The notes beneath the pieces are model-generated. The model ran no database searches and had not been told where the DNA came from. It saw only the letters and a program-made list of their open reading frames with translations. Position numbers and translations under genes: made by a program. Below are positions 5,967 through 55,806 of a stretch of DNA of 64,000 nucleotides, piece by piece. Position 1 is the stretch's first letter, and the number at the start of each line of letters is the position of its first letter. Origin of the DNA: an uncultured Bacteroidales bacterium (GTDB lineage Bacteria > Bacteroidota > Bacteroidia > Bacteroidales > Bacteroidaceae); assembly GCA_902792555.1 (NCBI GenBank), contig CADAZW010000002.1, positions 7,480 to 71,479 of the forward strand, in the 5' to 3' direction.

Positions 5967-6198
5967 ATATAATGTATTCGTTTATATCTAATTCTAATAA
6001 CTGCAAAATTACGCATTTATTGCGAAACGAGCCGGCCTTGGCGGAAAAAAGTTTGGTAATGATATAGATGTTGGCACAGATTACTCATAATGCAGCCAAT
6101 TCTGACTGCGTTAGTTGTATGTTTATTGCATAGCAGCGTTGATTAGAATATAATCCCATGAAGAAAGATTTTAATCCCGTGGAGCTGGCGTTTTCAAC

Positions 6199-6282
6199 GG
6201 GATTAGATTTCGTTTCAAGGCTTTTAGATTTCGTTTCAAGGCTTTTAGATTTCGCTTCAAGGCTATTAGTTTTGATTTCCAC
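6199..6282 (+). repeat. R1 array, locus 1: four tandem 21-nt units (GCTTTTAGATTTCGTTTCAAG type)
   Basis: Units at 6199-6219, 6220-6240, 6241-6261 and 6262-6282, read directly from the sequence. Confidence 0.9.
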
Positions 6283-6620
6283 GGAACCAAATTGCCCTGC
6301 ATATTAAATCGTCTGTTTTTCAACTCTTTAACCGAAACAATGCAGGAATGTATGCAAAAAATATTTTATTTTTTTATAGGCAATGACACAGATGTTGGCA
6401 CAGAGAGAGCATAACTATTGAGAGCATAACTATTTCGCAGAGACCGTAATCTGTGCCAACTGCTATATTGTTGCCAAAAGTTTTATTTCCATGACATAAG
6501 GATGAGGGAGCATGGCCAATTGCTGCGGCGGGTGCATGATATGCAATCGGGTGTATGGCTTGAGACATGAGAGCTCGTTAATACAATAATAAATGTATGT
6601 GTGTGGATTTTTTCGGGAGG

Positions 6621-12441: not shown

Positions 12442-12521
12442 AAATTTGAGATTTGAAATTTGAAATTCAGGCATGTCCGCAACCGGACTGAGCTCAAATC
12501 TCAAATTCCAAATCTCAAATT
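12442..12521. repeat. 80-nt imperfect hairpin built from GATTTGAAATTTGAG stutter arms
   Basis: The left arm AAATTTGAGATTTGAAATTTGAAATTCAG pairs with the right arm CTCAAATCTCAAATTCCAAATCTCAAATT. The loop contains the mini-hairpin GTCCGCAACCGGAC. Confidence 0.85.
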
Positions 12522-12551: not shown

Positions 12552-13862
12552 CTAGCCAATGAAATTGTTCATCACATAGCGGATGATGAACAGGATGGCG
12601 AGTACCCACAGCATGGGTGAAATCTTGCTGAACTTGGCTGTGCATGCGTTGATTACCACATAAGAGATCATACCGATCATGATACCGTCGCTGATGCTGT
12701 AGGTCAGCGGCATGAGCATCATGGTGAGGAATGCGGGTATGGCCTCGGAGTAGTTGCCCCACTCAATATTCTTGATGGAGGAAGCCATCATCACGCCAAC
12801 AATCACCAGCACAGGACCGGTAGCCGATGAGGGGATGGCCAGGAAGAGCGGTGCGAAGAACAGCGACAGCGCGAAGCATAAGGTAATGACGAAGGCTGTC
12901 AGACCGGTGCGTCCGCCTTCAGCTACGCCAGCTGCACTCTCAATGTAGGTGGTGGTTGTGCTGGTGCCGAGGCATGCGCCTGCGGTGGTGGCTACGGCAT
13001 CGGCCATGAAGATCTTCTCAATGCGGTCAACATTGCCCTTCTCGTCAACCATGCCGGCCTTGACGGACACGCCTACCACGGTGCCGATGGTGTCGAACAT
13101 GTCGATGAAGAGGAATGTGAAGATGATGATAATCATGTCGGGCGTAAAGATCCTATCCCATTCAAACTGGCAGAAGATGGGCTCGATTGACGGGGGCATG
13201 TCGATGATGCCGTTAAACTGGGTGATGCCCATGGGGATGCCGATGATGGTGGTGGCCAGGATGCCGATGAGCATGCCGCCTTTCACGTTGAGCACTACCA
13301 GTATGCTGGTCAGCGCCAGGCAGATGAGCGACAGGATGACGGCAGTGTCGGCAAAGTTGCCGAGGGTTACGGATGTAGCCTCGCTGCTTACTACGATGCC
13401 GGCGCTCTTAAGGCCGATGAAGGCGATGTAGAGTCCGATACCGGCGCCGATGGCGTTCTTAAGCGTGGAGGGTATGGCCTTCACGATGGCTGTGCGCACC
13501 TTGGTCAGCGTCAGGATGATAAACAGTATACCTTCAAGCAGGATGGCTGTCAGGGCAAACTGCCAGCTGTAGCCCATGCCGAGGCATACGGTGAAGACGA
13601 AGAAGGCATTGAGGCCCATGCCCGGCGCGAGGCCGAAGGGCTTCTTGGCATAGACGGCCATAACCAGTGTGCCAATGATGGCTGCCAGGGCTGTGGTGGT
13701 AAAGACGGCCTTGGTGTCCATGCCCTGATCAGCAAGGGCACTGAAGATGCCGGGGTTCACTGCAAGGATGTAGGCCATGGTGAGGAAGGTGGTTATACCT
13801 GCCATAACCTCTATTCTTTTAGAGTGCTTGCCGGGAACGAATCCAAATAATCTGTAAAGCAT
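12552..13862 (-). CDS. NCS2-family purine (adenine/guanine/hypoxanthine) permease, AzgA/PbuG type
   Basis: N-terminus EVMAGITTFLTMAYILAVNP, a polytopic membrane protein of the expected 436-aa length for the AzgA subfamily. Confidence 0.9.
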   Translation of the reverse strand: MLYRLFGFVPGKHSKRIEVMAGITTFLTMAYILAVNPGIFSALADQGMDTKAVFTTTALAAIIGTLVMAVYAKKPFGLAPGMGLNAFFVFTVCLGMGYSWQFALTAILLEGILFIILTLTKVRTAIVKAIPSTLKNAIGAGIGLYIAFIGLKSAGIVVSSEATSVTLGNFADTAVILSLICLALTSILVVLNVKGGMLIGILATTIIGIPMGITQFNGIIDMPPSIEPIFCQFEWDRIFTPDMIIIIFTFLFIDMFDTIGTVVGVSVKAGMVDEKGNVDRIEKIFMADAVATTAGACLGTSTTTTYIESAAGVAEGGRTGLTAFVITLCFALSLFFAPLFLAIPSSATGPVLVIVGVMMASSIKNIEWGNYSEAIPAFLTMMLMPLTYSISDGIMIGMISYVVINACTAKFSKISPMLWVLAILFIIRYVMNNFIG

Positions 13863-13880
13863 GGTCGTAATTCTTTAATT

Positions 13881-14118
13881 ATTTGAAATTTGAGATTTGA
13901 AATTTGAAATTTAGCCAAGTCCGGTGGTGGACACTGAATGCCGAAGGCATCGCGAGAAATTGCTTTTGAGCAATGCTCTCTTTGAGCGAAGGCTCTGTCG
14001 GTGGTCGGCGAAGCCGGGCTGACAAATAAGAGCCTGATAGCGAAGCGGCACAGTAATTACCATAATTTTTTTTAGAAATTTATGCCCAACGGCCTGCTAA
14101 ATTTCAAATTTCAAATGC
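13881..14118 (-). repeat. E1: about 238-bp MITE-like composite element with 21-bp perfect terminal inverted repeats
   Basis: ATTTGAAATTTGAAATTTAGC at 13895-13915 and its exact reverse complement at 14096-14116. Subterminal motifs TTTAGCCAAGTCCGG and ATGCCCAACGGCCTGCTAAAT. Confidence 0.85.
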
Positions 14119-14165
14119 TTAATGTTTAACGTTTATTGGTTGTTGGTTAACGCAATCTCGTCAAC

Positions 14166-14924
14166 TTAGAAGCTCCACTTCAAGGCGATGGTCGGGTTGA
14201 CGAAGAAGGTCTTGCCGTCGTAGTTGTTGACAACGAAGTTGTTGGAGAATTCCCACTCGGTGCCGAGGCTGAGGTTGAGGCCGTCGCAGAGGGTGTTGAA
14301 GTTATACCACAGCTGAGGCTCGGTCAGGAATACCAGCTGGCCGTGGCCGTTGGCCTTCTGTCCGCGCCAGAGGTCGGCGAAGCCGCTGAAGGTGAGGGCC
14401 TTCTTGCAGAAGGTAGTGCTCCATACGCCGGTGAGCTGGAAGCTGGAGTAGGCCTTGTTGTCATAAGCATCCTTGAAGAATTGCTTATACAGGACCTGTG
14501 CAGACCATGTGGTGCTGAAGTCGGCATTGTGGCCATTGATGGCGGGACCGATGAGGGCAGCCTGCTGATAGATGGAGCCCCAGGTGGTGCGGCGACCTAC
14601 GCAGAATCCGCCGTTATACTCGACGTGGGCAGCCAGGCTGACATTCTCGCTAGGCTTGGCGAAGGTAAACTCGCGGCTGATCTCGGTGTAGGCACCCTGC
14701 ATACCGCGGCTGTAGAAGTCGAGGTCGACAAAGTAGAACCATGAACCCCACTTGTCAGCCTTAAATGTCTCGTAGGTCAGTGTCATGCGGGGACGGCTGC
14801 CGTTGTCGGCATTGAGAGCCTTGTTCATGTCGCGACCGAAGTCGTAGTGCAACTGCACATTCTGTGCCTGTACAGTAACCATGGTAGCCAGCATAGCGGC
14901 TGCAATAAAGAAAAATTTCTTCAT
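14166..14924 (-). CDS. outer-membrane beta-barrel protein, DUF5020/Tsx-like (putative nucleoside or nucleobase channel)
   Basis: Signal peptide MKKFFFIAAAMLATMVTVQAQ, then NVQLHYDFG... with beta-strand periodicity and a terminal ...LKWSF. Lies adjacent to the purine permease. Family call is from memory. Confidence 0.6.
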   Translation of the reverse strand: MKKFFFIAAAMLATMVTVQAQNVQLHYDFGRDMNKALNADNGSRPRMTLTYETFKADKWGSWFYFVDLDFYSRGMQGAYTEISREFTFAKPSENVSLAAHVEYNGGFCVGRRTTWGSIYQQAALIGPAINGHNADFSTTWSAQVLYKQFFKDAYDNKAYSSFQLTGVWSTTFCKKALTFSGFADLWRGQKANGHGQLVFLTEPQLWYNFNTLCDGLNLSLGTEWEFSNNFVVNNYDGKTFFVNPTIALKWSF

Positions 14925-15153
14925 AACTAAAAAGTTTAAAGTTAAAAGGTTTAAGTGTTTGATGTGAGTGTCTGATGTGGGGGTGCAATGCTTTGCATTG
15001 TCGTTTTCGTAACCCAAGGCTTTGTCTGTTGTCTTTTTTCTGCCTACAAAGTTAAAAATGTTTATTAAATCCCAAAAAATATTGCACTTTTTTTTGTATT
15101 TTCACTAGGTTTTGATGCTGAAAATAGTAAAAAGAGGTGCAATTCTGGGGTTA

Positions 15154-17925
15154 TTACATTACAATTTTCCTGCTTGTTCCGTTGCTCAGCCTGACTATGT
15201 GGATGCCCTTGCGACTTGAGGCTTGAGATGTGAGGCTTGAGATTTTGCGGCCCTGCAGGTCGTAGATGCATTGACCGTTGCCGCTTCGCTCTCGCGGCTC
15301 TATGAAGTCGGCACCGGCTTCGCCGACAGCCGACGAGCCGCTCGCGATGCCTTCGGCATTGACCATTGCCCATTGACCGTTATTCTCTATTATCTTCTTG
15401 CTGCTCTCTATGCCTGTGGGGTCGTCGTCAGGGTCGGGCATCATGTCCTTGTATAGATGGTATATCTGCTGCACTTGGTCGGGATAGTTGGTGGTGATCA
15501 GGTCCACGCCCATGTTGCAGAAGCGCACCATGGTGGCCCTGTCGTCGATGGTGAAGGCGTCAATCAGCAGGCCCAGTTCCTCGGCCTCGCTGACCCAGGT
15601 GGGATTGCTGAGGAAGGAGGTATAGTTGAAGTCAAGGGCCTGCAGGTCGTTCTTCCTTATGTCGGCTGGGGTCATGGAGGTGAGCGACTGGGTGAAGGCG
15701 GTGGGGTCGGCGGCGCGCACGTATCTCAGTGCGCTCACTCCGAAGGAGATATACTGCACCCTGTCTTGCATGCCGGCTTCCCTTACGGCCTGCACCACTG
15801 AGTTGGCCAGGCGCAGGGTGTCGGTGTTGGCGTTGACCTTGAGCTCAATCACCAGCTTGGTGGGTGAGTCGGGGTATTCGTTCTTCATGATGCTGAAGAA
15901 GTCGCTGAGCAGTGGCAGCTTCTCGCCGTTGCTGAGCGTCTTGTCCTTCACCTGGGCGTAGGTGCTCTGGTTGATTACCGTGCCGCCGAAGGAGAAATCG
16001 TGGTTGACGAATATGTAGCCGTCGGTCGTTTGGTGCACGTCAATCTCGCAGCCATAGAATCCTGCCTCGAAGGCGTTGCGGATGGCGGCGCGTGAGTTCT
16101 GGCTGGTGCCGTTGCCCTTGGTGTACCATCCGCGGTGGGCTACGGCTTGTGCCGGCTTGGGCATCTTGTCGGTCTTTGTCAGGGTGGCGGTGCCCAGGGT
16201 CTGGGTGACGGCTCCGCGCGTGAGGCGGATGGTGTAGGTGCTGGTGGCCATGTTCTGCGGTATGGCTATGCGCCCGCCGCGTTCGGTCAGGCTTAGGGTG
16301 TCGCCGGCTGCCGGTGTGTCGCCGCTGTAGAGGCTCAGCCTGTCGCCGCGGCTGAGCTCGGTGCTGTGTACGGGGAAGTGGCATCCCTCGGCAAAGAGGA
16401 ATCCGTCGGGCAGCAGGCAGTCGTGCAGCAGCACCAGTCCGTCGTGGGCCTGCCGCAGCTGCTTCTCGAGTTCCAGCAGACGGGTGCCGCTCACTGCCTC
16501 GTCATCCACGGCGCTCTCGCACTCTGCCAGCAGGGCGAGGTAGCTGCTTGCCTCATCCGTCAGTTCGGCGTCCTGGGCAATGCTGATGGTGGCCTTGGCC
16601 TTGTCGATGGCCTCGCGCAGCGCCTTGCGCTCGGTGCGGTTGATGAGGTCGCTGTAGATGAGGCCCACCTGCTCGGTGGTGAGCACCTGGTCGTAGATCT
16701 TGCAGCTCACTATGTCCCACGAGCCGCTGGCGTTGGCTGCGTTGGCTGCCGAGGGGTCGCCACCGATGCCAAACCAGTGGTAGATGTCGTTGCTGCTGAG
16801 GTTGAGGTTGCCCTGTGCCGCCACCTCGTTTTTCAGCTCGCCGTTGACGTAGATGCGCGCCTTGCCGGCGGCCTTGTCCCATACGCCCACCACGTGGTAG
16901 TATTCGCCTGCCTCGGGCTTCACGCCGCTGGTGGCCCACTTGTAGCCGCCCACGTAGGGCAGGAAGGTAATCTCGTTCTTGCCCTCCTTGGCGTTGGCCT
17001 TCTTGCAGATGAGGAAGCCCGTGCCGCCCTGCTGGTGGGATGAGAACCACTTGGCCTCCTTGTCCTCCACCGGTATGCGGGAGCAGAACAGCGTCTCCAG
17101 CGTGTGGCCGTCCTGCAGGGCCTTGAGCATGCGGCCGTCGGTGCGGCTGGCAGCGTAGTCCACCTTGTAGAATGCTGAGGTGCTGCCGCCGTAGGCATTG
17201 CTGAACTGGGCAACATAGCGGCCGAAGCGGTCGTTGTAGGAGGTGCTGACGGTGCCGTTCCTCACCACGGCGTTGCCCATCGGCGATACATCGGCAGCCG
17301 TGCCGCCGGAGCCGAACTGCACATCCAGCACGTCGGCCACGGGCAGCAGGCTCTCTTCCGCCTCAAAGACATTCCACATATTGATGTGGGTGCCGCTGCC
17401 GTACCATAGGTTGCCCTCGGCGGGCTTGCCGGCGTCGTTGCGCCAGGCGTAGGAGGCTGAGGTGTCGTAGATGGCCCAGGAGAGGTCGTCCCATCCGCGC
17501 GGGAATTTCTTCTGGTCGTTATAGTCTGTCCACGGGGTGGGGGAGGAGTCCTTGGTGAGGAAGGTGAACAGGGCAGCGTCCTCTCTGTCGGCCACCGTCT
17601 TGGCTGTGCCCGTAGCCTTGGGGCACGGGGCAATATAGCGGTTGGTCACTGCGTTGCGCAGGCGGTAGTGGGTGGCGTCGGCTTGCTCCATCATCCATAC
17701 TGACTGCTGGGTGAAGCCCAGCTGCCAGTGGGCCTCGCCGGCGTCGGTCTCCCTGACATAGTATCCGTAGTTGGCAACGGTGGAGGCGGCCTCAATCACC
17801 ACGGCCCTGCCGTCGGCGGCATTCGCGGGGGCGAGGCGGCTGCCCACCACATAGGCTGCACTGGCGGCAGCGGCCCAGCCTGCAAGGCATAAAAGGGTAA
17901 GAAAAATGCGTGCTATCTTTTGCAT
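15154..17925 (-). CDS. large secreted protein: LamG/concanavalin-like region, glycerophosphodiester phosphodiesterase (GDPD) domain and T9SS type-A C-terminal sorting domain
   Basis: Signal peptide MQKIARIFLTLLCLAGWAAAASA. GDPD motif AHRGW...ENSRAAI...GCEIDVHQTTDGYIFVNHD. C-terminus ...IYDLQGRK...KGIHIVRLSNGTSRKIVM. Start set at 17925. Confidence 0.85.
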   Translation of the reverse strand: MQKIARIFLTLLCLAGWAAAASAAYVVGSRLAPANAADGRAVVIEAASTVANYGYYVRETDAGEAHWQLGFTQQSVWMMEQADATHYRLRNAVTNRYIAPCPKATGTAKTVADREDAALFTFLTKDSSPTPWTDYNDQKKFPRGWDDLSWAIYDTSASYAWRNDAGKPAEGNLWYGSGTHINMWNVFEAEESLLPVADVLDVQFGSGGTAADVSPMGNAVVRNGTVSTSYNDRFGRYVAQFSNAYGGSTSAFYKVDYAASRTDGRMLKALQDGHTLETLFCSRIPVEDKEAKWFSSHQQGGTGFLICKKANAKEGKNEITFLPYVGGYKWATSGVKPEAGEYYHVVGVWDKAAGKARIYVNGELKNEVAAQGNLNLSSNDIYHWFGIGGDPSAANAANASGSWDIVSCKIYDQVLTTEQVGLIYSDLINRTERKALREAIDKAKATISIAQDAELTDEASSYLALLAECESAVDDEAVSGTRLLELEKQLRQAHDGLVLLHDCLLPDGFLFAEGCHFPVHSTELSRGDRLSLYSGDTPAAGDTLSLTERGGRIAIPQNMATSTYTIRLTRGAVTQTLGTATLTKTDKMPKPAQAVAHRGWYTKGNGTSQNSRAAIRNAFEAGFYGCEIDVHQTTDGYIFVNHDFSFGGTVINQSTYAQVKDKTLSNGEKLPLLSDFFSIMKNEYPDSPTKLVIELKVNANTDTLRLANSVVQAVREAGMQDRVQYISFGVSALRYVRAADPTAFTQSLTSMTPADIRKNDLQALDFNYTSFLSNPTWVSEAEELGLLIDAFTIDDRATMVRFCNMGVDLITTNYPDQVQQIYHLYKDMMPDPDDDPTGIESSKKIIENNGQWAMVNAEGIASGSSAVGEAGADFIEPRERSGNGQCIYDLQGRKISSLTSQASSRKGIHIVRLSNGTSRKIVM

Positions 17926-18615
17926 GGTTTTGATGTTTGTTTCTGCATACAAAGTTACGAAAAACCGAGGGCATAACAAAGAAGAATTCTCTCTTTTTAA
18001 GCCGTGACAGAGCAACTTTTTTTTGCTGCGTCAAGGTTGCGGAACACTGTGGGCATGGCAGAGGGATTTCCCAGAAAAACCTATTAGTTTATTATTATTA
18101 TTACTTTCTTTACTTTTCTTTTGTGTTACTTTTCTTTTTTTTCTTTCCCCCCGCGCCGTGACCGTATGAATCATACGGTCATAGACCTGACGGTGAACGA
18201 ATCGTTCACCCTCTTCATCTGCATGGCCGGGCGTTCCGCCAAGGGTGTCACGTTTTGTTACCCCCTTGTCTTCTATCGAATCATACGGTCGCTGACCGGT
18301 GTCGCGAATCACGACGGTGGTTTTGTCCTCGGCATTCTCTGCGCAGGCTCCATCAACCCCAGACTTTTCACCCCGCCGGAGAGCACCACCAACTTCATCC
18401 AGTCGCTCATCAACCCCAAGGGCGAACAAGGCGACGATGCAGAATAAAAACGTTACAAACGTTACAAACGTTACACCTAAAAATGTAACGTTATCCTCCA
18501 ATCTTTAACCTAACCCCCTTGAATTTTAAACTGAGCCCGTCGAAGTTTATTTTAACTCCGAGGAAAAAATTTTTAACTCCGTGGAAACATAATCTAAGAG
18601 CCTCGAGCTGTCATT

Positions 18616-18722
18616 TTCAAGGCTCTTAGATTTTTTTTCAAGACTCTTAGATTTCGGCTCGGCGCGATTAGATTTTGCTTCGACGGGCTCAGCATAAAGC
18701 TTCGACGCGATTAGATTTGGGT
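18616..18722 (+). repeat. R1 array, locus 2: five units of 20-22 nt
   Basis: TTCAAGGCTCTTAGATTT.., TTCAAGACTCTTAGATTTCGG, CTCGGCGCGATTAGATTTTGC, TTCGACGGGCTCAGCATAAAGC, TTCGACGCGATTAGATTTGGG. Confidence 0.9.
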
Positions 18723-25933: not shown

Positions 25934-27142
25934 ATGAAAAATGCGCAAAAAAAGCCTAATTTTGTCGTCGTGGATAGACATTTCCTAAATTTTTCGCATG
26001 ATATGGCCATGGGGCGCAATGTTGCCAACTATACTCCGCCCCCTAATGTGCAGATGATGGAGCGCGACCTTGCCCCGCTGGCTGACCTGCTTCCCGAGGC
26101 TGATATTTCTTACAGTGAAGACGCCCCGGTGTGGGGTTGGGACCTCAGCTATGTCAACCGCATGCGAGTCGCAGGATACAGCAATCTGCCTACCGCTGCG
26201 CAGCTTGCCGACATACGCCGCCTGGCGTCGCGCCTCACTGCCGTGGAGATGCTGCCCGCCATCCGCCGTCGCCTGCCGCAGGAACTTACCGCAGGCGAGA
26301 GCTGCTTTGTCTCGGAGAAATCGGCAGGAGTCTTCGAGAGCGAAGTGGCAATGCCTCAGGCATCGCGAGGAGGCTCTTTCGCTGTCGGCGAAGCCGGAGC
26401 AGATATTGTAGGCAAATTCGTGAGAGGAGTGGAAATGGCCAACTATAAATGGGCAATTCTAAAAGCCCCCTATTCCGGCAGTGGTCGTGGCCTGCGCATG
26501 GCGGAGAGCAGTCAGCTAACGGCGCCGGGCACCATGCCTATCAGCCTGAGACATTGGTTGATGCGCTGCCTGCGCGAGCAGGGCGGGGTGGTGATAGAGC
26601 CTTATTATAATAAGGTGGCAGATTTCGCCCTTGAGTTTAAGGTTACTCCTTCGGAGGTGGAGTATTTGGGCTTGTCTGTGTTTGAGACTAATGCCAACAA
26701 TGTCTATTCCTTTAATTTTATTGCTTCACAGCCGGCCTTATGGCAAAAGGTGAAGCGCCTGGTGCCCTCCCTGGACAGCGGGAAGCTGATAGACGCGGTG
26801 CGCGAGGAACTCCACGACCGCTTCGTGGGTCACTACCTCGGTCCTGTGGGCGTGGACATGATGGTGATAGACGACTCTCGCATTCCTCTGCTTCATCCCT
26901 GCGTGGAGGTCAATGTCAGACGCACCATGGGAGAGCTGTTGCTCCATCTCCTGCCACTGCTGGCCGAGGGTGTGGAGGGGCGTTTCCGCCTGCTGTATAA
27001 TAAGGAAAATGCCGGTCTGCGCAGGGAGATTTCGGCCATGCCGTCGGCTCGCTATGACGAGCGGGGCTGCCTGGTCAGTGGCACGCATCTGCTTACTCCC
27101 GTCAATGCCGACACGCGCTATGTCGCTATGATTGAGGCATAA
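25934..27142 (+). CDS. conserved hypothetical protein (possibly ATP-grasp-like)
   Basis: 402-aa ORF with coding-like composition. The motif ILKAPYSGSGRGL resembles ATP-grasp-type hypothetical proteins of Bacteroidota, but this function is not established. Confidence 0.65.
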   Translation: MKNAQKKPNFVVVDRHFLNFSHDMAMGRNVANYTPPPNVQMMERDLAPLADLLPEADISYSEDAPVWGWDLSYVNRMRVAGYSNLPTAAQLADIRRLASRLTAVEMLPAIRRRLPQELTAGESCFVSEKSAGVFESEVAMPQASRGGSFAVGEAGADIVGKFVRGVEMANYKWAILKAPYSGSGRGLRMAESSQLTAPGTMPISLRHWLMRCLREQGGVVIEPYYNKVADFALEFKVTPSEVEYLGLSVFETNANNVYSFNFIASQPALWQKVKRLVPSLDSGKLIDAVREELHDRFVGHYLGPVGVDMMVIDDSRIPLLHPCVEVNVRRTMGELLLHLLPLLAEGVEGRFRLLYNKENAGLRREISAMPSARYDERGCLVSGTHLLTPVNADTRYVAMIEA

Positions 27143-29955: not shown

Positions 29956-29996
29956 GATTCCTAATTTCTAATTTCTAATTCCTAATTTCTAATTCA
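29956..29996. repeat. AATTTCTAATT stutter repeat spanning the U32 start / metA stop junction
   Basis: GATTCCTAATTTCTAATTTCTAATTCCTAATTTCTAATTC. On the minus strand it supplies the last metA codons (DELEIRN*). Confidence 0.85.
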
Positions 29997-30871
29997 TCCA
30001 CGTACTGCTGCAGCCAGTTGTGGTAGAATCGGCGGCCGGTGTCTTGCCAGGTGACGTTGACGCCCTTGGTGGGGTCGTCGTCAACGAAGTAGTTGAGCGG
30101 CACGCTGATGGGTACGCCCTTGGCCATGTCGCGCTCATACTCAAAGCGCAGTCGGCCCTCGGCGTACTCCATGTGACCGTTGGCAAAGATGTGACGTCCG
30201 CCCCAGGCAATGGCCAACTCGGGGCCGGTGTGCTCCTGATCGATGAGCACAGTCAGCTCCTCCTGTGCCTCGAGCTCGCTGCGCAGCATGGTGATATGCC
30301 TGCTGATGGGCACCATTACCTCCAGGCTCAGCCCCTCGGTGAGCGGGCAGTCGTTGCGCAGCCTGATGTGGGGATAGACGCCGAAGAGCTTCTCCTCCGT
30401 CCAGTGCTTGTCGATGCCGAAGAATATTTTCAGCGCAGCGAAGGCTCCCCAGCAGATGTTGAGAGTGGAGCGGACATGGGTGAATGTCCAGCGATAGACT
30501 TCCTGCAGCTGCGGCCAGTAGGTTACCTCTTCATAGTCGAGGTGCTCCAGCGGTGCACCGGTGATAATCATGCCGTCGTAGAGGCTGCCGTCTTCCATTA
30601 TCTCCGCAATGTCGGTGTAGTAGGTGTCCATGTATTCTTGCGGAGTGGTCTTGTAGCGCAGGCCGCTCATCTTGGCCAGGGTGACGGCTATGTCGAGGCC
30701 GGCGCCATCCATCATCGTATAGTATTCCTCCTCGGCCTCCTGCTTCTGCGGCATGAGGTTGAGGATGACAAGCCTCAGCGCACCGGCACCGGGCTTGTCA
30801 TCGCTGATGCTTATGCCTTGCTGACGCAGCCTCGCCACTGATGGATGGTTCTTAGGTAGGAAAATCATCAA
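29975..30871 (-). CDS. metA: homoserine O-acyltransferase (MetA family)
   Basis: Contains LRLVILNLMPQKQEAEEEY and the downstream MetA-like core. Length of 298 aa fits the family. Confidence 0.88.
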   Translation of the reverse strand: MMIFLPKNHPSVARLRQQGISISDDKPGAGALRLVILNLMPQKQEAEEEYYTMMDGAGLDIAVTLAKMSGLRYKTTPQEYMDTYYTDIAEIMEDGSLYDGMIITGAPLEHLDYEEVTYWPQLQEVYRWTFTHVRSTLNICWGAFAALKIFFGIDKHWTEEKLFGVYPHIRLRNDCPLTEGLSLEVMVPISRHITMLRSELEAQEELTVLIDQEHTGPELAIAWGGRHIFANGHMEYAEGRLRFEYERDMAKGVPISVPLNYFVDDDPTKGVNVTWQDTGRRFYHNWLQQYVDELEIRN

Positions 30872-30902
30872 TGCTCAATGCTCAATGTTCAATGTTCAAT
30901 GC
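30871..30902. repeat. CAATG(C/T)T stutter repeat between the pepO stop and the metA start
   Basis: The stretch CAATGCTCAATGCTCAATGTTCAATGTTCAATGC fills this short intergenic gap (coordinates approximate). Confidence 0.85.
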
Positions 30903-32939
30903 TTACCAAATGTCCACCCTCTTGGCTTTGGGCACGAAGAGCGGGTCTTTCTTGGTAATTTTGAAAGCCTTGTACCATGCGTCTATATGAGGCAGGGCGC
31001 CGTTCACTCTCCACTCGCCGAGGGAGTGGGGGTCGCGGGCGGTGAGGTCGCGGATGGCCTCTTCGGTAATGTTCTGTGCCCATACTCCGGCATAGGCAAG
31101 GAAGAAGCGCTGGTCGGCGGTAAAGCCGTTGGCCATGTCTGCCCCGGTCTTGCCGGCATCTTTTTGAGCCTTCTTGAATGCTGTGTAAGCCACTTGCAGG
31201 CCACCGTGGTCGGCCAGGTTCTCGCCGAGGGTGAGATCGCCGTTGGCCTTAAGGTCGGGCAGCACGCTGATGTTGGAGAAGAAGTCGGTCATCACCTGTG
31301 CACGAGCCTTAAACTTGTCGCCGTCGCCTTCTGCCCACCAGTCGCGGAAGTTGCCCTCCTTGTCAAACTGGCGGCCCTGGTCGTCGAATCCGTGAGTCAT
31401 CTCATGACCGATGACCACGCCGATGGCGCCGTAGTTGAAGGCATCGTCAGCCTGCATGTCGAAGAAGGGGTATTGCAGGATGCCGGCGGGGAAGCATATC
31501 TCGTTGGTGGTGGGATTGTAGTAGGCGTTGACGGTCTGCGGGTACATATACCACTCGTCGCGGTCAACGGGCTTCTTGTATTTCTCCTCCACAGTCTTGC
31601 GGTTGGCCCATTCGCGCACATCCTGCATCGACTCGTAGAGCGACTTGCTGGCGTCGATGTCGAGCTTGGAGTAGTCTCTCCATTTGTTGGGGTAGCCAAT
31701 CTTGACATAGAAGGAGGAGAGCTTGTCCTTGGCGTAGGCCTTGGTCTCGGCGCTCATCCATTTCTGCGCGTCGATGCGCTCAGCCAGGGCTATCTGCAGG
31801 TTCTTCACCAGCTGCTCCATGCGAGCCTTGTTCTCTGCGGGGAAGTATTTCTCCACATAGAGCTGTCCCACAGCCTCGCCCAGTATGGCGTTGACGGCCG
31901 ATACGCTGCGTTTCCAGCGTGCCTGGGGCTCCTTCTGGCCCGACATGGTGCGGTTGTAGAAATCGAAGTTCTGCATGTAGATCTCGTCGCCCAGCACATT
32001 GGTGTTGCCGTTGATGAGGGTCCACTGCATCCAGTCCTTCAGCGTCTGCAGGTCTGTCTCGTTGAGTATGGCCACTGCCTCCTTGACGGCCTCGGGCTGG
32101 CCTACGTCGAGGATGTCGAGGTCGTCAATATAGTTGAGGTGGAAGTACTGGTCCCAGTCGTAGCCGCCAAACTGCTCCTTGAATTCGGCATAGGTCATCT
32201 TATGGTAGTTGGAGGCGGGGTCGCGCAGCTCCACGCGGCTCTTGGATGCCTTGGCCATGCGTGTCTCCACGGCCATCACCGACTCCATCTTGCGCAGGGC
32301 GGTGAGCTCGTCGTCGCCCAGCAGCTTAAACATCTTCACGATGTGCTGCTTGAAGGCCTCGCGTATCTTTGCGAATGCGGGGTCGTCGCTGAGGTAATAC
32401 TCCTTCTGTCCCAGCGAGAGGCCGCCCTGTCCCAGACTCACGATGTTGGAGGTGGAGTTCATCATGTCGGCATTGATGTCTGCGCCCCACAGCTCGTCTG
32501 CGCCTTTGATGGAGTTAAGCACCATCAGGCGCTTCAGCTCGTCGCGGTCCTTGATGTTGGCGATGGCCTTGAGGTCGGCTTTGATGGGGGTGATGCCCTC
32601 CTTGTTCTGACGGACGGAGTCCATCATCATGCCGTAGAGGTCGCCAATCTTCTGCGCTACGCTGCCCTTCTCGTGCTTCTCCTTCGTAAGGCTGAGGATG
32701 AGCTCCTTTATCTGCTCGCGGTTGGCCTCAGCCACGGCGTCGAAGGAGCCGAAGCGGGAATACTCAGGCTTGAGGGGGTTGTTGTCAATCCATCCGCCGC
32801 AGGCATAGCGATAGAAGTCGGTGCCGGGCTTAACGGACTTGTCCATGTTGCTAACATCCACTCCGTGCGAGTGGTTGAAGGTCTGTGCTGTGGCTGCAGT
32901 CATCGCAGCCGCCAGTGCAAGTGTCATAATGATTTTCAT
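30903..32939 (-). CDS. pepO: M13-family zinc metallopeptidase (PepO/endothelin-converting-enzyme-like)
   Basis: Signal peptide, zinc motif HEMTHGFD and a downstream ENLADHGG motif. Length 678 aa. Confidence 0.93.
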   Translation of the reverse strand: MKIIMTLALAAAMTAATAQTFNHSHGVDVSNMDKSVKPGTDFYRYACGGWIDNNPLKPEYSRFGSFDAVAEANREQIKELILSLTKEKHEKGSVAQKIGDLYGMMMDSVRQNKEGITPIKADLKAIANIKDRDELKRLMVLNSIKGADELWGADINADMMNSTSNIVSLGQGGLSLGQKEYYLSDDPAFAKIREAFKQHIVKMFKLLGDDELTALRKMESVMAVETRMAKASKSRVELRDPASNYHKMTYAEFKEQFGGYDWDQYFHLNYIDDLDILDVGQPEAVKEAVAILNETDLQTLKDWMQWTLINGNTNVLGDEIYMQNFDFYNRTMSGQKEPQARWKRSVSAVNAILGEAVGQLYVEKYFPAENKARMEQLVKNLQIALAERIDAQKWMSAETKAYAKDKLSSFYVKIGYPNKWRDYSKLDIDASKSLYESMQDVREWANRKTVEEKYKKPVDRDEWYMYPQTVNAYYNPTTNEICFPAGILQYPFFDMQADDAFNYGAIGVVIGHEMTHGFDDQGRQFDKEGNFRDWWAEGDGDKFKARAQVMTDFFSNISVLPDLKANGDLTLGENLADHGGLQVAYTAFKKAQKDAGKTGADMANGFTADQRFFLAYAGVWAQNITEEAIRDLTARDPHSLGEWRVNGALPHIDAWYKAFKITKKDPLFVPKAKRVDIW

Positions 32940-35145: not shown

Positions 35146-35232
35146 AATCGCGCAGAGCCGTTCAGTTTTGGCGCGATTAGATTTCATTTCGGCGCGATTA
35201 GATTGTGGCTCTGCGCGATTAGATTTTTATGC
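35146..35232 (+). repeat. R1 array, locus 3: leader TTTAATCGCGCAGAG plus three GGCGCGATTAGATT units
   Basis: Read directly. The period is 21 nt. Confidence 0.9.
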
Positions 35233-43058: not shown

Positions 43059-43166
43059 TAATCGCGCAGAGATTGTCAGTTTCGGCGCGATTAGATTTCG
43101 GTTTGGCGCGATTAGATTTTGTTTCGGCGCGATTAGATTTGCCGCCAAGGCTCTCAGATTTCCTTT
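43059..43166 (+). repeat. R1 array, locus 4: leader TTTAATCGCGCAGAG plus three GGCGCGATTAGATTT units and one degenerate unit
   Basis: Read directly. The period is 21-22 nt. Confidence 0.9.
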
Positions 43167-43256
43167 TGTCGGACCGCGCTTGTAGCGCGACCACCGACGA
43201 AATCTTTGCGAAGGCTTCGCCTTTTGTTTTGGCGTGACTAGTGGCCGCTCCGCGGC

Positions 43257-43328
43257 ACGCAGATCACGCAGATAAGGCAGATCACGCAGATAAGGCAGAT
43301 TACGCAGATAAAGGCAGATTGCGCAGAT
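43257..43328 (+). repeat. R4 array: eight 9-nt units (CACGCAGAT / AAGGCAGAT)
   Basis: CACGCAGATCACGCAGATAAGGCAGATCACGCAGATAAGGCAGATTACGCAGATAAAGGCAGATTGCGCAGAT. Confidence 0.9.
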
Positions 43329-43439
43329 TTTTGTTATCACGCTTTGCGCTTAGTCGTGTGTCAAGAGGAGTTAGGAGTTAATGGTAAATAGCCAAATTGT
43401 ATATAAATTGTAATTTGTGAAATTGTAAATTACATGGTT

Positions 43440-46310
43440 TCAAAGTTTCTCTCTCAGGAATTTGGCTGTGTGGCTGCCGGGGCACTGCGCCACTTGCTCG
43501 GGTGTGCCCTGGGCTACTATCTGTCCGCCGAGGTCGCCGCCCTCGGGGCCGAGGTCGATGATGTGGTCGGCGCACTTGATGACTTCCATGTTGTGCTCGA
43601 TGATGACGATGGTGTGGCCGTGGTCGATGAGTGCCTGGAAGGCGCGGAGCAGTATGCTGATGTCATGGAAATGGAGTCCGGTGGTGGGCTCGTCGAAGAT
43701 GAAGAGTGTGGGCTGTGTCTTCTCGCTGGCGAGATAGTAGGCGAGCTTGACGCGCTGGTTCTCGCCGCCGCTGAGTGTGGAGGAGGGCTGTCCGAGCTTG
43801 ATATAGCCGAGGCCTACGTCCTGCAGGGGCTTGATGCGGCGGGCGATGGAGGCCTGGCCGTTGGCGCTGAAGAAGCTGATGGCCTCGTCTACGTCCATCT
43901 CGAGGATGTCGTGGATATTCTTGCCGGCGAAGCGCACCTCCAACACGTCCTTCTTAAAGCGCTTGCCGTGGCACTCCTCGCACTCGAGCTCGATGTCGGC
44001 CATGAACTGCATGGACACCTTGATTTTGCCCTCGCCGTTGCAGTTGTCGCAGCGGCCGCCCTCGGCATTGAAGGAGAATGTGGCGGGGGTGAAGTCCATC
44101 TGGCGTGACAGGGGCTGGTCGGCCATGAGGCGCCGTATGAGGTCGTATGCCTTGATATAGGTGATGGGGTTGGAGCGTGAGGAGGTGCCTATGCTGCTTT
44201 GGTCGACGAGGGTGACGGCCTTGATGGCCTTGAGGTTGCCCTCGAGGGAAAGGAACTCGCCCGGGCGGTCGCAGGCCTCGTCCAGGTGGCGCTTGAGGCC
44301 GCGGTAGAGGATGTCGTTGACGAGGGTGGACTTGCCGCTGCCGCTGACTCCGGTGACTACGGTCATCACGTTGAGGGGGAACTTCACGTCGATGCCCTTG
44401 AGGTTGTTGGCGCGGGCTCCCTTGACCTCTATGTAGCGATTGCTGCAGCGGCGGCTCTGCGGTACGGCTATCTTGTCGATGCCGAGCAGGAAGTTGAGGG
44501 TGTGGGAGGTTGGGTGTTTGAGATTTGAAGTTTGAGATTTGAAATTTATTTCTTTCAGGTCTCCCTGGAAGACAATCTGTCCGCCGTTGACTCCTGCGTC
44601 GGGGCCGAGGTCGATGATATGGTCGGCAGCGCGCATGATCTCCTCATCGTGCTCCACTACTATCACGGTGTTGCCCAGTTGCTGCAGGCGGCGCAGCACG
44701 CCTATGAGCTGCTGGGTGTCGCGCGAGTGGAGGCCTATGCTGGGCTCATCGAGTATGTAGAGTGAGCCTACGAGACTGCTGCCGAGGGAGGTGGCTATGC
44801 TGATGCGCTGGCTCTCGCCGCCGCTGAGTGTGGAGGCGGTGCGGCCGAGGGTGAGGTAGCCCAAGCCGATATCTACGAGCACCTGCAGGCGGTTGCGTAT
44901 CTCCTGGACCAGGACGGGGTAGTCGCCGTCGGGCATCTGCCTGAAAATGTCGTTGAGCTGGCTGACGGGCATGTAGGTAAGCTCGGTGATGGTGTGGCCG
45001 CAGAGTTTGACATAGTCGGCCTCCTTCTTGAGGCGGTGGCCATGGCAGGCGGGGCAGGTGGTCTTGCCGCGGTAGTGGGCGAGCATGACGCGGTACTGTA
45101 TCTTATATTGGTTGCGCTTGACCATGCGGAAGAAGGCGTCGATGCTTACCTGCATCTCTTCGGGCATGGCCTGCTCGTCGGCATCGCCGTGCCAGAGGAT
45201 GTCCTTCTGCTCCTGGGTGAGGCTGTAGTATGGCTGGAAGATGGGGAATCCCTTGGGGCCCTGGCGCTCGCAGAAGACGCGCTTCCACTCGCTCATCTTC
45301 TCGCCGCGCCAACACTGGACAGCGCCGTCATAGACTGATAGTGAGCTGTTGGGGATGACCAGGCTCTCGTCGATGCCTATGAGTGAGCCGAAGCCCTCGC
45401 ACTCGGGGCAGGCGCCGGCGGGCGAGTTGAAGGAGAACATGGCGTCGGTGGGGCGTTCAAACTGGATGCCGTCGCGCTCGAAGGCGGAGGAGAAGGCCCT
45501 GATGGTCTGGGGAGACTCCTCTATCTCTCCTATAGGGGAGGACCCTGGCGCAGGAGTTTCTCCTTTAGTGGGACGGGAGGGTGTCTCTCTGATGATGCAT
45601 TGTCGGCTGCCCTCGTCGAATGCCGTCTCGATGCTCTCGCGCAGTCGGGAGAGGGAGTCGGCGTCGGTGCGGCGCGCCAGGCGGTCGATGAGGATGTTGA
45701 CCTCGAGATTCTCCAGCTGGTGGTCGCTCATGGTGCCGAGCAGGTCGGCTATGTCGCGTATGTCGCCGCCGATGCTTACGCGGGAGAATCCCTGCTTGAG
45801 TTCCATCTCAAGCTGCTGGCGCATGGTGCGCCCCTGTGGCACGGTGAGGGGGCTCTCGACGGTGAAACGGCTGCCCTCGTCCATTTGGAGGACATAGCTG
45901 ACCACGTCCTCAATGGTGTCGCTCTTGACTTCCTGTCCGCTGACGGGCGAGATGGTCTTGCCGGCGCGGGCAAAGAGCATGCGCAGATAATCGTAAATCT
46001 CGGTGGAGGTGCCTACGGTGGAGCGCTGGCTGCGGTTGGTGGTGCGCTGCTCGATGGCTATGGCGGGGGGAATGCCGTGGATATAGTCGCACTCGGGCTT
46101 CTGCAGGCGGCCCATAAACTGGCGGGCATAGCTGGAGAGGCTCTCCACATAGCGGCGCTGGCCGTCGGCGAAGAGGGTGTCGAAGGCAAGGCTCGACTTG
46201 CCGCTGCCGCTGAGGCCGGTGATGACCACAAATTTGCCGCGGGGTATGGTGATGTCAATGCCCTTGAGATTGTTGACGCGTATGCCTTTTGCTACTATGT
46301 TACCGTCCAC
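43440..46310 (-). CDS. uvrA: excinuclease ABC subunit A (UvrA paralog 2), uninterrupted
   Basis: 956 aa. Walker A GLSGSGKSSLAFDTLFADGQRRY, zinc modules, two LSGGEsQR signatures and a second Walker A GVSGSGKSTL. Confidence 0.95.
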   Translation of the reverse strand: MDGNIVAKGIRVNNLKGIDITIPRGKFVVITGLSGSGKSSLAFDTLFADGQRRYVESLSSYARQFMGRLQKPECDYIHGIPPAIAIEQRTTNRSQRSTVGTSTEIYDYLRMLFARAGKTISPVSGQEVKSDTIEDVVSYVLQMDEGSRFTVESPLTVPQGRTMRQQLEMELKQGFSRVSIGGDIRDIADLLGTMSDHQLENLEVNILIDRLARRTDADSLSRLRESIETAFDEGSRQCIIRETPSRPTKGETPAPGSSPIGEIEESPQTIRAFSSAFERDGIQFERPTDAMFSFNSPAGACPECEGFGSLIGIDESLVIPNSSLSVYDGAVQCWRGEKMSEWKRVFCERQGPKGFPIFQPYYSLTQEQKDILWHGDADEQAMPEEMQVSIDAFFRMVKRNQYKIQYRVMLAHYRGKTTCPACHGHRLKKEADYVKLCGHTITELTYMPVSQLNDIFRQMPDGDYPVLVQEIRNRLQVLVDIGLGYLTLGRTASTLSGGESQRISIATSLGSSLVGSLYILDEPSIGLHSRDTQQLIGVLRRLQQLGNTVIVVEHDEEIMRAADHIIDLGPDAGVNGGQIVFQGDLKEINFKSQTSNLKHPTSHTLNFLLGIDKIAVPQSRRCSNRYIEVKGARANNLKGIDVKFPLNVMTVVTGVSGSGKSTLVNDILYRGLKRHLDEACDRPGEFLSLEGNLKAIKAVTLVDQSSIGTSSRSNPITYIKAYDLIRRLMADQPLSRQMDFTPATFSFNAEGGRCDNCNGEGKIKVSMQFMADIELECEECHGKRFKKDVLEVRFAGKNIHDILEMDVDEAISFFSANGQASIARRIKPLQDVGLGYIKLGQPSSTLSGGENQRVKLAYYLASEKTQPTLFIFDEPTTGLHFHDISILLRAFQALIDHGHTIVIIEHNMEVIKCADHIIDLGPEGGDLGGQIVAQGTPEQVAQCPGSHTAKFLREKL

Positions 46311-55721: not shown

Positions 55722-55806
55722 GACGACATCGCGCCGAAGTTTATGCTAATCCCGTCGAAGCCAAAACTCATCGCGCCGAAACAGACAACTCCTGCGCAAT
55801 TACATT
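55722..55806 (-). repeat. R1 array, locus 5 (inverted orientation)
   Basis: The reverse complement reads TAATTGCGCAGGAGTTGTCTGTT TCGGCGCGATGAGTTTTGGCT TCGACGGGATTAGCATAAACT TCGGCGCGATG.., colinear with loci 2 and 4. Confidence 0.85.

Follow-up and report, generated by a model that had tools for sequence, protein, structure and literature searches.

The 64-kb stretch of DNA analyzed here (the window) contains four copies of one repeat: the interior of element E1, an in-frame copy within a GDPD/LamG ORF, an in-frame copy within an ORF encoding a 402-aa protein, and an intergenic copy at 43139-43224(-). We consider it likely that all four belong to a single, previously undescribed family of short, non-autonomous mobile DNA elements that resemble RPEs, the palindromic repeats found between genes and in-frame within genes of Rickettsia (Ogata et al. 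2000, via PMC10969869 and PMC3733652). The repeat copies, their surroundings and their host genes are as follows.

13881..13936 (+): (ATTTGAA)n heptamer arm and left shell half (TTTAGCCAAGTCCGGTGGTGGACACTG), left of the E1 core; TRF
13937..14052 (+): E1 core, long form; DNA fold z=-2.8; CM and nhmmer matches
14053..14117 (+): right shell half (AGTAATTACC...TATGCCCAACGGCCTGCTAAA) and inverted (TTTCAAA)n arm, right of the E1 core; direct reading
15154..17925 (-): host gene 1, secreted Laminin_G_3 and GDPD protein, 923 aa from ATG; Pfam PF13385, PF03009
15217..15243 (-): second, separate period-7/14 array in the GDPD ORF, in the C-terminal tail; TRF period 14, 100% match
15268-15277 (-): short matching array remnant, CGGTCAATGC, after the core; direct reading
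15278..15360 (-): intact short-form core, in-frame in the GDPD/LamG ORF; CM R1 114.6 bits, E=1e-23
15361..15384 (-): heptamer-array remnant ACGGTCA ATGGGCA ATGGTCA, directly 5' of the core, encoding NGQWAMV; direct reading
25934..27142 (+): host gene 2, 402-aa protein with an ATP-grasp fold; Foldseek against ATP-grasp ligases, E about 1e-12
26336..26441 (+): degenerate core with a 3'-module remnant of another copy (GAGAGCGAAGTGGCA) ahead of it; nhmmer E=6.5e-9, CM 38.9 bits
43139..43224 (-): intergenic copy, diverged subfamily; CM 45.8 bits, E=1e-7

Copies of the repeat in the window

The 20-mer AATGCCGAAGGCATCGCGAG occurs with no more than two mismatches at 13937(+), 15341-15360(-) and 26350(+), where 0.03 occurrences are expected, and CTGTCGGCGAAGCCGG is found exactly at 15314-15329(-) and 26382-26397(+), and with two mismatches in E1. 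When the GDPD copy and four copies from another genome were combined into an nhmmer profile, it detected E1 (E=1e-10) and the degenerate copy of the 402-aa ORF (E=6.5e-9). The copy at 43139-43224(-) reads AAGGC-GAA-GCCTT ... GATTTC/GAAATC, GTCGG/CCGAC, CGCGCT-ACA-AGCGCG ... TGAGAGCCTTGGCGGCAA; it lies between convergent genes and is flanked by 21-nt and 9-nt arrays (TRF). Both ORF copies are in-frame and each encodes AVGEAGAD; a 1-nt indel puts their first halves out of frame with each other (NAEGIAS versus MPQASR). The copies are homologous as DNA, not as protein: the frame of the first half differs between the two ORFs, hosts as a whole use all three sense frames, and for the element they carry, the Ugd orthologs L023 and L050 share an insertion site but not a reading frame.

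E1 is composite: its core is an element in its own right, nested inside a second repeat that we named the shell. The core consists, in order, of a 5' module, an extra 34-nt hairpin (AAATTGCTTTTGAGCAAT...), a three-helix hairpin and a 3' module (GATAGCGAAGCGGCAC), and the inverted heptamer arms that surround it fold with z=-5. E1 is antisense to both neighboring genes. It is missing from two relatives (L068 and L006; 98.4-98.9% nucleotide identity), which carry 40 nt in place of the 275-nt stretch 13891-14165. A search for empty sites using joined flanks was swamped by tandem arrays and revealed the shell as a repeat that recurs without a core (in L032, L026 and L015). A candidate empty shell at 52762 of the window was rejected, having only the left motif in common.

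The core in host gene 1 reads AATGCC...GCGGCAA, with the element proper (TGCC..GGCAA) being 81 nt, or 27 codons, and encoding NAEGIASGSSAVGEAGADFIEPRERSGN; its P1/P2/P3 hairpin is perfect. This core is common to relatives at 97-99% nucleotide identity. A GDPD ortholog with 62% identity (P0122) lacks the core, being ~34 aa shorter at the insert, and also lacks the second array, which encodes KISSLTSQASS. The C-terminal tail of the protein is T9SS-like, with a sub-threshold match to TIGR04183 (E=0.013; 15.5 bits versus a cutoff of 23).

The 402-aa protein has no Pfam or NCBIfam hits. Its core encodes ...SEVAMPQASRGGSFAVGEAGADIVGKFVRGVEM and sits in a linker ahead of the KAPYSGSGRG loop; the palindrome has been lost, with no residual hairpin (DNA fold z=-0.1). 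The copy has an 18-nt indel that is polymorphic among relatives at 96% nucleotide identity, and a 68% ortholog (P0002) lacks ~30 aa here. In the AlphaFold model, confident elsewhere (pLDDT 91 overall), low pLDDT within the chain is limited to one stretch, residues ~131-165 at 50-65, and this coincides with the insert.

A sequence-only reading of the window had quoted three sequences with coordinates, all of which were correct, and had claimed that the interior of E1 recurs in-frame in two unrelated ORFs that give the same peptide. The recurrence was confirmed, as was the shared peptide for AVGEAGAD, with the first halves differing by frame. Other claims held only in part. The third copy, placed at 26349-26400, extends over 26336-26441 and is a degenerate copy without its palindrome; three copies were counted of the four present, with 43139-43224(-) missed and E1 being a long form with the extra 34-nt hairpin; and the T9SS sorting domain assigned to the GDPD protein rests solely on the sub-threshold TIGR04183 match.

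Anatomy of the element and its insertion site

Cores are 81 or 84 nt long, and long forms are about 115 nt. The 5' end is a conserved hairpin, TGCC-GNA-GGCA, followed by TCGCGAR; the middle is a three-helix hairpin whose sequence varies by subfamily with pairing always kept, followed by an A-rich bulge; and the conserved 3' end is YGAGA-GCGAAGC-GGCAA, within which GCGAAGC forms a mini-hairpin. The terminal modules are conserved and the interior covaries. Triloops are GAA, GCA, GTA or GGA; GCGNAGC is an extraordinarily stable DNA mini-hairpin, and triloops of the form C-GNA-G are characteristic of DNA hairpins (PMC13037366).

Intact copies fold as DNA with z from -2.2 to -3.9. In a covariance-model alignment, 97.4% of base-pair cells were paired, compared with 78.8% in shuffles and 22-43% in slid controls, and double changes were found at 21 of the 24 base pairs; the model itself guided the fitting of this alignment, and expansions within subfamilies should not be counted as independent. 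An anchored, alignment-free test of P1 gave 90-98% paired, against a permutation maximum of 62-84%. The structure is strand-specific (90 G:T versus 18 A:C; p=1e-12). RNAalifold applied to a MAFFT alignment of all subfamilies did not recover the interior helices, because the subfamilies sit in different registers. An Rfam search of the whole window found only a single tRNA at the gathering score, and at E<=1 over 13800-15500 there was a single, chance miRNA hit outside the element. We considered and rejected a CRISPR-like reading of the tandem arrays (conserved junction with variable interior), the interiors being related, covarying palindromes.

Insertion is precise, occurring after NNAA (TCAA, GGAA or TGAA) and mostly inside 7-nt tandem arrays. 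In each of the 26 copies flanked by arrays left and right, NNAA closes the left flank and GCAA closes the element, and excising exactly TGCC...GGCAA from these copies restores the phase of the array (0.89, versus <=0.40 at shifts of 1-3 nt). There is either no target duplication or a duplication of AA at most, two cases that cannot be distinguished from the junctions. Across the family, cores are embedded in period-7 arrays, with some copies lacking flanking arrays, and arrays without cores are widespread, including within ORFs. Adjacent units are arranged head-to-tail with a period of 79-95 nt, and such tandems are frequent. The 3' terminus of the element, GCAA, resembles the NNAA target; because the end mimics the target, fresh copies can land right behind older ones, which produces the head-to-tail tandems. 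Internal deletions between short direct repeats give rise to solo forms.

The 7-nt arrays are pervasive and themselves add 7-residue repeats to proteins. The link between the element and these arrays is unexplained, and this link may be the more general phenomenon.

Distribution of the family and copies within genes

We identified 186 unique copies in ~1 Mb of related ruminant-gut contigs. Most were found using a pattern that demands the two terminal modules, and the search itself thus accounts for part of the conservation seen at the termini. Matches were found in 116 metagenome stretches, largely from ruminant assemblies as judged by accession series, and the repeat is present in independent assemblies from NCBI, ENA, JGI and Logan. 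A search for an exact 20-mer across 185,579 species gave seven occurrences in one GTDB species (RUG13363) and two apparently chance hits elsewhere; no copies were found in the viral contigs searched. Every sequence comes from a MAG or a metagenome contig; among the hosts, some (P0233, P0234) appear to be chimeric or frameshifted. The family occurs in a narrow clade of uncultured ruminant-gut Bacteroidales, where it is abundant. Our literature search found no prior description of these sequences, of heptanucleotide arrays in Prevotella or the rumen, or of MITEs in Bacteroidales.

About 75% of the 186 copies are intergenic and ~8-14% are in-frame within genes. Intergenic copies between co-directional genes show no orientation bias (23 sense versus 20 antisense), and intergenic copies are also present in divergent and convergent spacers. 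Within genes, nearly all copies are in the sense orientation. In-frame copies occur in at least 11 gene families, including AroA, RibD, Ugd, Omp85 and threonine aldolase, with all three frames used; hosts comprise the GDPD and ATP-grasp proteins of the window and, besides AroA, RibD, Ugd and Omp85, a beta-eliminating lyase, rSAM/SPASM, phosphatase, rhodanese-MBL and GNAT proteins. Pfam domains are found on both sides of the insert in in-frame hosts, and the AroA insert has no counterpart among solved structures. Element length is divisible by three for 13 of 15 validated coding copies, as compared to 69 of 119 non-coding copies. Coding status was mostly assigned by an open-frame heuristic, with about 15 copies checked against Pfam or orthologs.

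We found no evidence for avoidance of stop codons: intact copies are not more open than dinucleotide shuffles in any frame, indicating that the element is not designed for reading in every frame, and none is open in all six. A phmmer search of 1.84 billion representative proteins returned 18 hits at E<=0.001; the 11 with >=68% identity correspond to two long hosts (AroA and the beta-eliminating lyase) and short ORFs, and low-complexity proteins (P0231, P0232) were hit weakly. A peptide search of a word-indexed protein database returned only 7 short ORFs and missed the known hosts. Translation of the inserts is inferred from sequence alone. In the scenario we favor, most insertions would persist solely between genes, and survival inside a gene would require a length that is a multiple of three, a stop-free frame, and a site in a loop or linker. 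The host protein would gain about 27-45 residues, mostly small and hydrophilic, and the palindrome would decay with time, as in the 402-aa protein.

The sequence-only reading had interpreted the repeat as a dispersed palindromic repeat inserted in-frame in the manner of an RPE and had named several tests of this, all of which gave favorable results. Alignment with orthologs showed that P0122 (62%) and P0002 (68%) lack the segments; nucleotide similarity was far above that of shuffles; and structure prediction made the insert the sole internal low-pLDDT stretch of the 402-aa protein. One finding that would have refuted it, the same peptide in distant orthologs, was not made: phmmer recovered the peptide solely from a few proteins of the same kind, which rules it out as an ancestral motif. 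The interpretation is qualified by the family being mainly intergenic (~75%), with ~8-14% in-frame and all three frames used. Its statement that the precedent lies in Rickettsia needs qualification, since gene-internal palindromic repeats are known elsewhere, as REPs (PMC3733652) and as ERIC and BOX elements (PMC10969869).

Mobility, rival explanations and known systems

Gain and loss of the element are supported by the absence of E1 from ~99% relatives, the absence of the inserts from 62-68% orthologs, and the polymorphic 18-nt indel. We infer, but have not shown, that the element is mobilized in trans through a single-stranded DNA intermediate, as by HUH/Y1 transposases of the IS200/IS605 or RAYT type; the inference is based on the strand-specific structure, the hairpins at both ends, the GNA triloops and insertion at a fixed tetranucleotide. 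A DDE-type or other mechanism is not excluded, because an AA duplication is indistinguishable from none. Within 1 Mb of loci, we detected neither a transposase nor an autonomous copy: unverified query sequences for IS200 TnpA and E. coli RAYT gave no tblastn hits in these 1.0 Mb, with no whole genomes searched, and no pair of modules encloses a transposase in the 1 Mb searched. Orphan 5' modules (L082, L118, L114) were rejected as autonomous copies, being remnants beside ordinary genes.

One alternative, which we consider unlikely, is that the element acts chiefly as structured RNA, either as a small RNA or in cis as a stabilizer or terminator like transcribed REPs, with selection on the hairpins acting on the RNA and the ORF copies being incidental. 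The strong covariation, the restriction of G:U-type wobbles to one strand, and the sense orientation of nearly all in-gene copies are consistent with this, and many REPs are believed to function as RNA (PMC3733652). However, intergenic copies are unbiased in orientation (23 sense, 20 antisense) and also occupy divergent and convergent spacers, E1 is antisense to both neighbors, Rfam has no matching family at the gathering score or at E<=1, and C-GNA-G triloops typify DNA hairpins (PMC13037366). Moreover, target-precise insertion and head-to-tail tandems demand a DNA-level process, whatever the RNA does.

A second alternative dispenses with a dedicated transposase: the core would be carried by slippage, template switching or gene conversion between recombination-prone heptamer arrays. 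In its favor, cores are nearly always in or beside period-7 arrays, core-less arrays are widespread and extend into ORFs, solo forms arise from deletions between short direct repeats, and no transposase was found in the 1 Mb of loci. We nonetheless regard it as improbable. Junctions are identical to the nucleotide in unrelated heptamers (TCAACTA, GGAATTA, TTTGAAA, TCAAACC), which argues for recognition of the element ends rather than flank homology; in addition, some copies lack flanking arrays, and the termini are conserved while the interior covaries.

That AVGEAGAD and its neighbors are an ancestral or convergent low-complexity motif, a chance similarity or an assembly artifact is suggested by the Gly/Ala/Ser-rich peptide and the weak hits to low-complexity proteins (P0231, P0232), but is all but excluded by the different frames of the first half in the two ORFs, the same DNA in an intergenic copy, the absence of the segment from orthologs, the strong phmmer hits (11 at >=68% identity) being known host kinds and short ORFs, and the agreement of independent NCBI, ENA, JGI and Logan assemblies.

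We favor a family of mobile elements that works like RPEs by analogy; no RPE reference sequences were compared, and we do not claim that the element is an RPE. Both are short, dispersed palindromes found between genes and in-frame in unrelated housekeeping genes, where the extra peptide is tolerated and copies decay with age, and neither has a known transposase. The hosts differ (free-living gut Bacteroidales versus an obligate intracellular alphaproteobacterium), as do size (81-84 nt versus roughly 100-150 nt) and genic share (about 8-14% versus all 44 first-described R. conorii insertions). Unlike RPEs, the element uses three frames, so that there is no single conserved peptide, inserts precisely after NNAA within 7-nt arrays, and commonly forms head-to-tail tandems.

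REPs and REPINs, which are mobilized by RAYTs, are likewise high-copy hairpins, mainly extragenic and sometimes genic, that are thought to move single-stranded (PMC3733652). By contrast, our element lacks the GTAG/CGTC tag and has the conserved ends TGCCG... and ...GCGGCAA, is a ~81-nt composite of three hairpin modules rather than a 20-40-nt palindrome, forms direct tandems rather than inverted pairs (REPIN/BIME), and has no RAYT nearby that we could find (unverified queries, 1.0 Mb of loci). IS200/IS605 elements have end hairpins and strand-specific structure and insert 3' of a fixed tetranucleotide without duplication. The NNAA target, the target-like GCAA right end and the strand-specific hairpins at both ends (helices 1 and 5) match this description, whereas its hairpins are GNA mini-hairpins of very small size, duplication of AA (2 nt) is possible, and neither tnpA nor tnpB with such ends turned up in the loci searched. 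Like ERIC, BOX and cyanobacterial MITEs in genes (PMC10969869), the element is small, non-coding and non-autonomous, with occasional in-frame ORF fusion; it differs in having no clear target duplication and no parent IS in the 1 Mb searched, and in needing heptamer arrays to land in. DDE-derived MITEs carry terminal inverted repeats of about 15-30 bp and a target duplication of fixed length; any such repeats here would be minimal, with only TGCCG...CGGCA and TCGC...GCGA able to pair across the ends and covariation favoring a local 5' hairpin.

Selfish DNA that invades proteins as RPEs do has mostly been regarded as an oddity of Rickettsia, apart from scattered cases involving REP and ERIC elements. 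The same outcome is now seen in free-living ruminant-gut Bacteroidales, bacteria that recur across many ruminant metagenome assemblies; the anatomy of the element is unusually well defined, and its target is known to the nucleotide. With ends, target and strand defined, candidate enzymes can be tested, making this a tractable system for studying the movement of small hairpin repeats. Annotators of rumen MAGs should be alert to short ORFs that are spurious, domains that are split, and frameshifts where copies lie in tandem. A bolder reading, which is no more than possible, is that these are an undescribed class of single-stranded-DNA hairpin transposons in Bacteroidales that use 7-nt arrays as landing pads and are moved by an enzyme not yet linked to such elements, with the same machinery perhaps making the arrays, and that, in abundant rumen bacteria, they and the arrays are actively remodeling loops in dozens of housekeeping proteins. 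The in-frame copies constitute a natural experiment in the tolerance of AroA, RibD, Ugd and BamA-like proteins for insertions of 27-45 residues.

Copies in the window and their host genes

We identified four copies of the element in the window with a covariance model, one of them (copy 4) new and diverged. They and the two host ORFs are as follows:

13937-14052, plus strand: E1, the intergenic long-form copy
15278-15360, minus strand: copy in the GDPD ORF
26336-26441, plus strand: copy 3, in the 402-aa ORF
43139-43224, minus strand: copy 4, intergenic, convergent genes on either side
15154-17925, minus strand: ORF of a Laminin_G_3 and GDPD protein, by domain matches
25934-27142, plus strand: ORF of a 402-aa protein with no Pfam or NCBIfam match and a predicted ATP-grasp fold

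The sequence-only reading had quoted three related stretches, in E1 and in the two ORFs, and all three were found where it had placed them. The 20-mer AATGCCGAAGGCATCGCGAG is exact at 13937 (plus strand) and 15341-15360 (minus strand) and has two mismatches at 26350 (plus strand), whereas 0.03 matches are expected in shuffles; the similarity thus exceeds that of shuffled sequence. The two ORF copies match CTGTCGGCGAAGCCGG exactly, and the 3' motif GAGAGCGAAGCGGCA was seen at 3/3 sites (E1 and both ORFs). The claims that both ORF copies lie in frame and yield the peptide AVGEAGAD also held. A 1-nt indel between the element halves puts the first half into different reading frames (NAEGIAS in one ORF, MPQASR in the other), which by itself favours homology at the DNA rather than the protein level. 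The placement of the GDPD copy just before a T9SS sorting domain is weakly supported: the C-terminal tail (15154-15270) matches the type A domain below threshold (TIGR04183, E=0.013, profile positions 25-63), and the core may instead fall inside a degenerate N-terminal part of that domain.

Both host ORFs are genuine genes. The 402-aa protein has >1,500 homologs, the few with source names being Bacteroidales MAGs, and ATP-grasp peptide ligases rank highest among its PDB matches. In its AlphaFold model (mean pLDDT 91), the sole internal low-confidence stretch, residues ~131-165, is the insert, which is predicted to lie in a linker ahead of the glycine-rich loop. The segment is present, minus 6 aa, in the nearest homolog (P0001, 95% identity) and missing from P0002 (68%) and every more distant homolog; at the DNA level, ~90 nt are gone from the gene at related locus L004 and 18 nt (AGCGAAGTGGCAATGCCT) from that at L007. 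Similarly, the GDPD homolog P0121 (96%) has the insert, and P0122, the syntenic ortholog (62%), is shorter there by ~34 aa. The insertion reading therefore held against orthologs at 62-68% identity.

The DUF5020-permease spacer holding E1 is 303 bp in the window versus 69 bp in MAG GCA_017528775.1. By megablast, two relatives of 98.4-98.9% identity have 40 nt in place of the block 13891-14165 (275 nt), indicating that E1 is a strain-level gain. The element is thus a DNA-level repeat, polymorphic for presence among close strains. A phmmer scan of the 42-aa segment against 1.84 billion representative proteins gave 18 matches, those of high identity being EPSP synthase, beta-eliminating lyase and short ORFs that had been predicted across intergenic copies; this rules out a general protein motif. 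Two further long inverted repeats in the window are unrelated to the core: 55819-55863/56008-56052 (45 nt, 100%) and 51519-51562/51594-51637 (44 nt, 86%).

A conserved, strand-specific hairpin architecture

The short form reads AA/TGCC-GNA-GGCA-TCGCGAR, then helices P1 (7 bp), P2 (5-6 bp) and P3 (4-6 bp, loop mostly GAA), which have an A-rich bulge of 5-7 nt on their 3' side, then YGAGA-GCGAAGC-GGCAA. Long forms, E1 among them, have one or two additional 34-nt hairpin modules after GCGAG. P1-P3 vary throughout between subfamilies with complementarity kept (CGGCTC/GAGCCG, GACTTTC/GAAAGTC, GGCTC/GAGCC, AAGGCTC/GAGCCTT). In an alignment-free, module-anchored comparison, the seven P1 positions were 90-98% paired, versus at most 62-84% with permuted partners. 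On the covariance model alignment, 97.4% of cells were paired, versus 78.8% in shuffles and 22-43% in slid controls, and 21/24 pairs showed double changes, the local 5' hairpin included. These statistics have limits: pairing was counted on an alignment fitted to the model, the subfamilies do not represent independent events, and the search pattern required the terminal modules. Pairs included 90 G:T versus 18 A:C, indicating that it is one strand on which the hairpin is important, whether as single-stranded DNA or as RNA. Hairpin loops are GAA, GCA, GTA or GGA, and the GCGAAGC of the 3' module is an extraordinarily stable DNA mini-hairpin (PMC13037366). As DNA, the intact copies adopt similar folds (z -2.2 to -3.9), a structure that copy 3 no longer has (z=-0.1).

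Among 185,579 species, rumen MAG RUG13363, a GTDB species representative, has seven exact 20-mer copies, and the only two other matches are apparently chance. A gapped pattern with both terminal modules obligatory returned 116 stretches from metagenome contigs; their accession series (JAEEG*, OCTW01, Ga03106xx) suggest a ruminant-gut origin, although sample source was not confirmed. Viral contigs searched for the element gave no match. An nhmmer profile recovered 186 unique copies from 1.0 Mb of sequence, comprising the window and 133 loci.

Landing sites in period-7 arrays

Cores sit within period-7 tandem arrays: 23% of 30-nt core flanks reach ≥65% period-7 identity, versus 1.3% of background. 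For the 26 copies that have an array on each side, exact removal of TGCC...GGCAA restores array phase (cross-junction identity 0.89, versus ≤0.40 at 1-3-nt shifts), and the left flank always ends NNAA (TCAA, GGAA or TGAA). Junctions are therefore exact and target-specific, and fit either insertion 3' of NNAA without duplication or a 2-nt AA duplication. The element end GCAA mimics the target, which accounts for the frequent head-to-tail tandems without any spacer (...GCGGCAA/TGCC...). The E1 core is itself nested in a separate shell repeat (TTTAGCCAAGTCCGG ... TATGCCCAACGGCYTGCTAAA). Shells and arrays are located as follows:

13909-13936 and 14053-14102: E1 shell with the core nested inside; the shell repeat, flanked by inverted heptamer arms, forms a long hairpin
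L032:8497-8607, L026:7245-7339 and L015:5911-6014, related loci: shell without core
52762-52775: left shell motif alone
12442-12521, 13881-13912, 29957-29994, 30868-30903, 43404-43431, 44517-44547 and 52732-52854: period-7 arrays
15217-15243: period-7 array inside an ORF
6192-6284, 18614-18654, 35161-35226, 43070-43140 and 55727-55780: 21-nt-unit arrays

The window has ~11 period-7 arrays (units such as ATTTGAA, TCAATGC, GTTTGAG, AGTTGAT and TTAGCGG); they are landing sites of the core, and their origin is unexplained. Genes of relatives (ATP-grasp orthologs, GNAT, P-type ATPase) contain similar arrays, encoding 7-residue repeats (NGQWSMV, SQLSTIN, GVRSEEL). The second family, with an intergenic unit of approximately TTTCGGCGCGATTAGATTTCG (3 x 7 nt), includes one array abutting copy 4, which also adjoins a 9-nt array (ATCTGCGTG/ATCTGCCTT, 43257-43328); a similar ATCTGCGTA array adjoins a RUG13363 copy (L008, to the right of the copy at 7142). 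In loci L010 and L051, solo forms that comprise the 5' module and CGGCAA occur alternately with heptamers.

Coding copies and the proposed mobilisation

By an open-frame heuristic (embedded meaning an open frame of ≥200 codons), 140/186 copies are non-coding, 20 lie at ORF ends and 26 are embedded, 21 sense and 5 antisense, the latter mostly tandem-array artefacts. All three sense frames are in use. Pfam domains on both sides of the insert confirm as hosts EPSP synthase, RibD, UDP-glucose dehydrogenase, Omp85/POTRA, beta-eliminating lyase, radical SAM/SPASM, phosphatase (insert right after the signal peptide), rhodanese-metallo-beta-lactamase and GNAT. In two species, the UDP-glucose dehydrogenase orthologs share one insertion site for the core and read it in differing frames (L023:4158-4240, L050:1033-1115); L050 also holds, at 664-707, an additional solo copy with an internal deletion (NAEGVASGQRERSGNGQ). 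Nothing in the solved enzyme 3nvs, between its residues 323 and 330, corresponds to the AroA insert (residues 281-324). In EPSP synthase P0233 (residues 284-350), the first core is immediately followed by another in a different frame, which leaves the remaining AroA out of frame; this is likely a gene disrupted by tandem insertion, or else a sequencing error. Most copies are 81 or 84 nt long, and length is divisible by three in 13/15 validated coding copies versus 69/119 non-coding copies (p=0.047). Stop codons were not avoided relative to shuffles, indicating that coding copies are mere survivors; in-frame copies survive in loops.

The sequence-only reading had proposed behaviour like that of RPEs, while aware of no description in Bacteroidales. 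Functionally, the element is the RPE phenomenon (PMC10969869), and it partly overlaps with REPs in genes (PMC3733652). We conclude that it probably lies outside both families, with a different host, no GTAG/CGTC tag, an 81-84-nt composite unit, direct tandems and heptamer-array landing sites. Full-text literature searches turned up neither these sequences nor comparable elements in Bacteroidales or rumen bacteria, and no Rfam family matches.

Two rivals remain possible: that the element functions as a structured RNA, or that array-driven recombination or slippage produced the copies. Both are weakened, but not excluded, by the lack of orientation bias (23 versus 20 for intergenic copies relative to neighbouring genes) and by junctions that stay identical where the array sequences are unrelated. 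We instead infer that the element would be mobilised in trans by an HUH/Y1-type enzyme through a single-stranded DNA intermediate, following IS200/IS605 or RAYT logic, based on its subterminal hairpins, tetranucleotide target, target-like right end, GNA mini-hairpins and absence of clear duplication. No transposase or autonomous copy was found in 1 Mb of loci. The anatomy of the element is well defined and testable.
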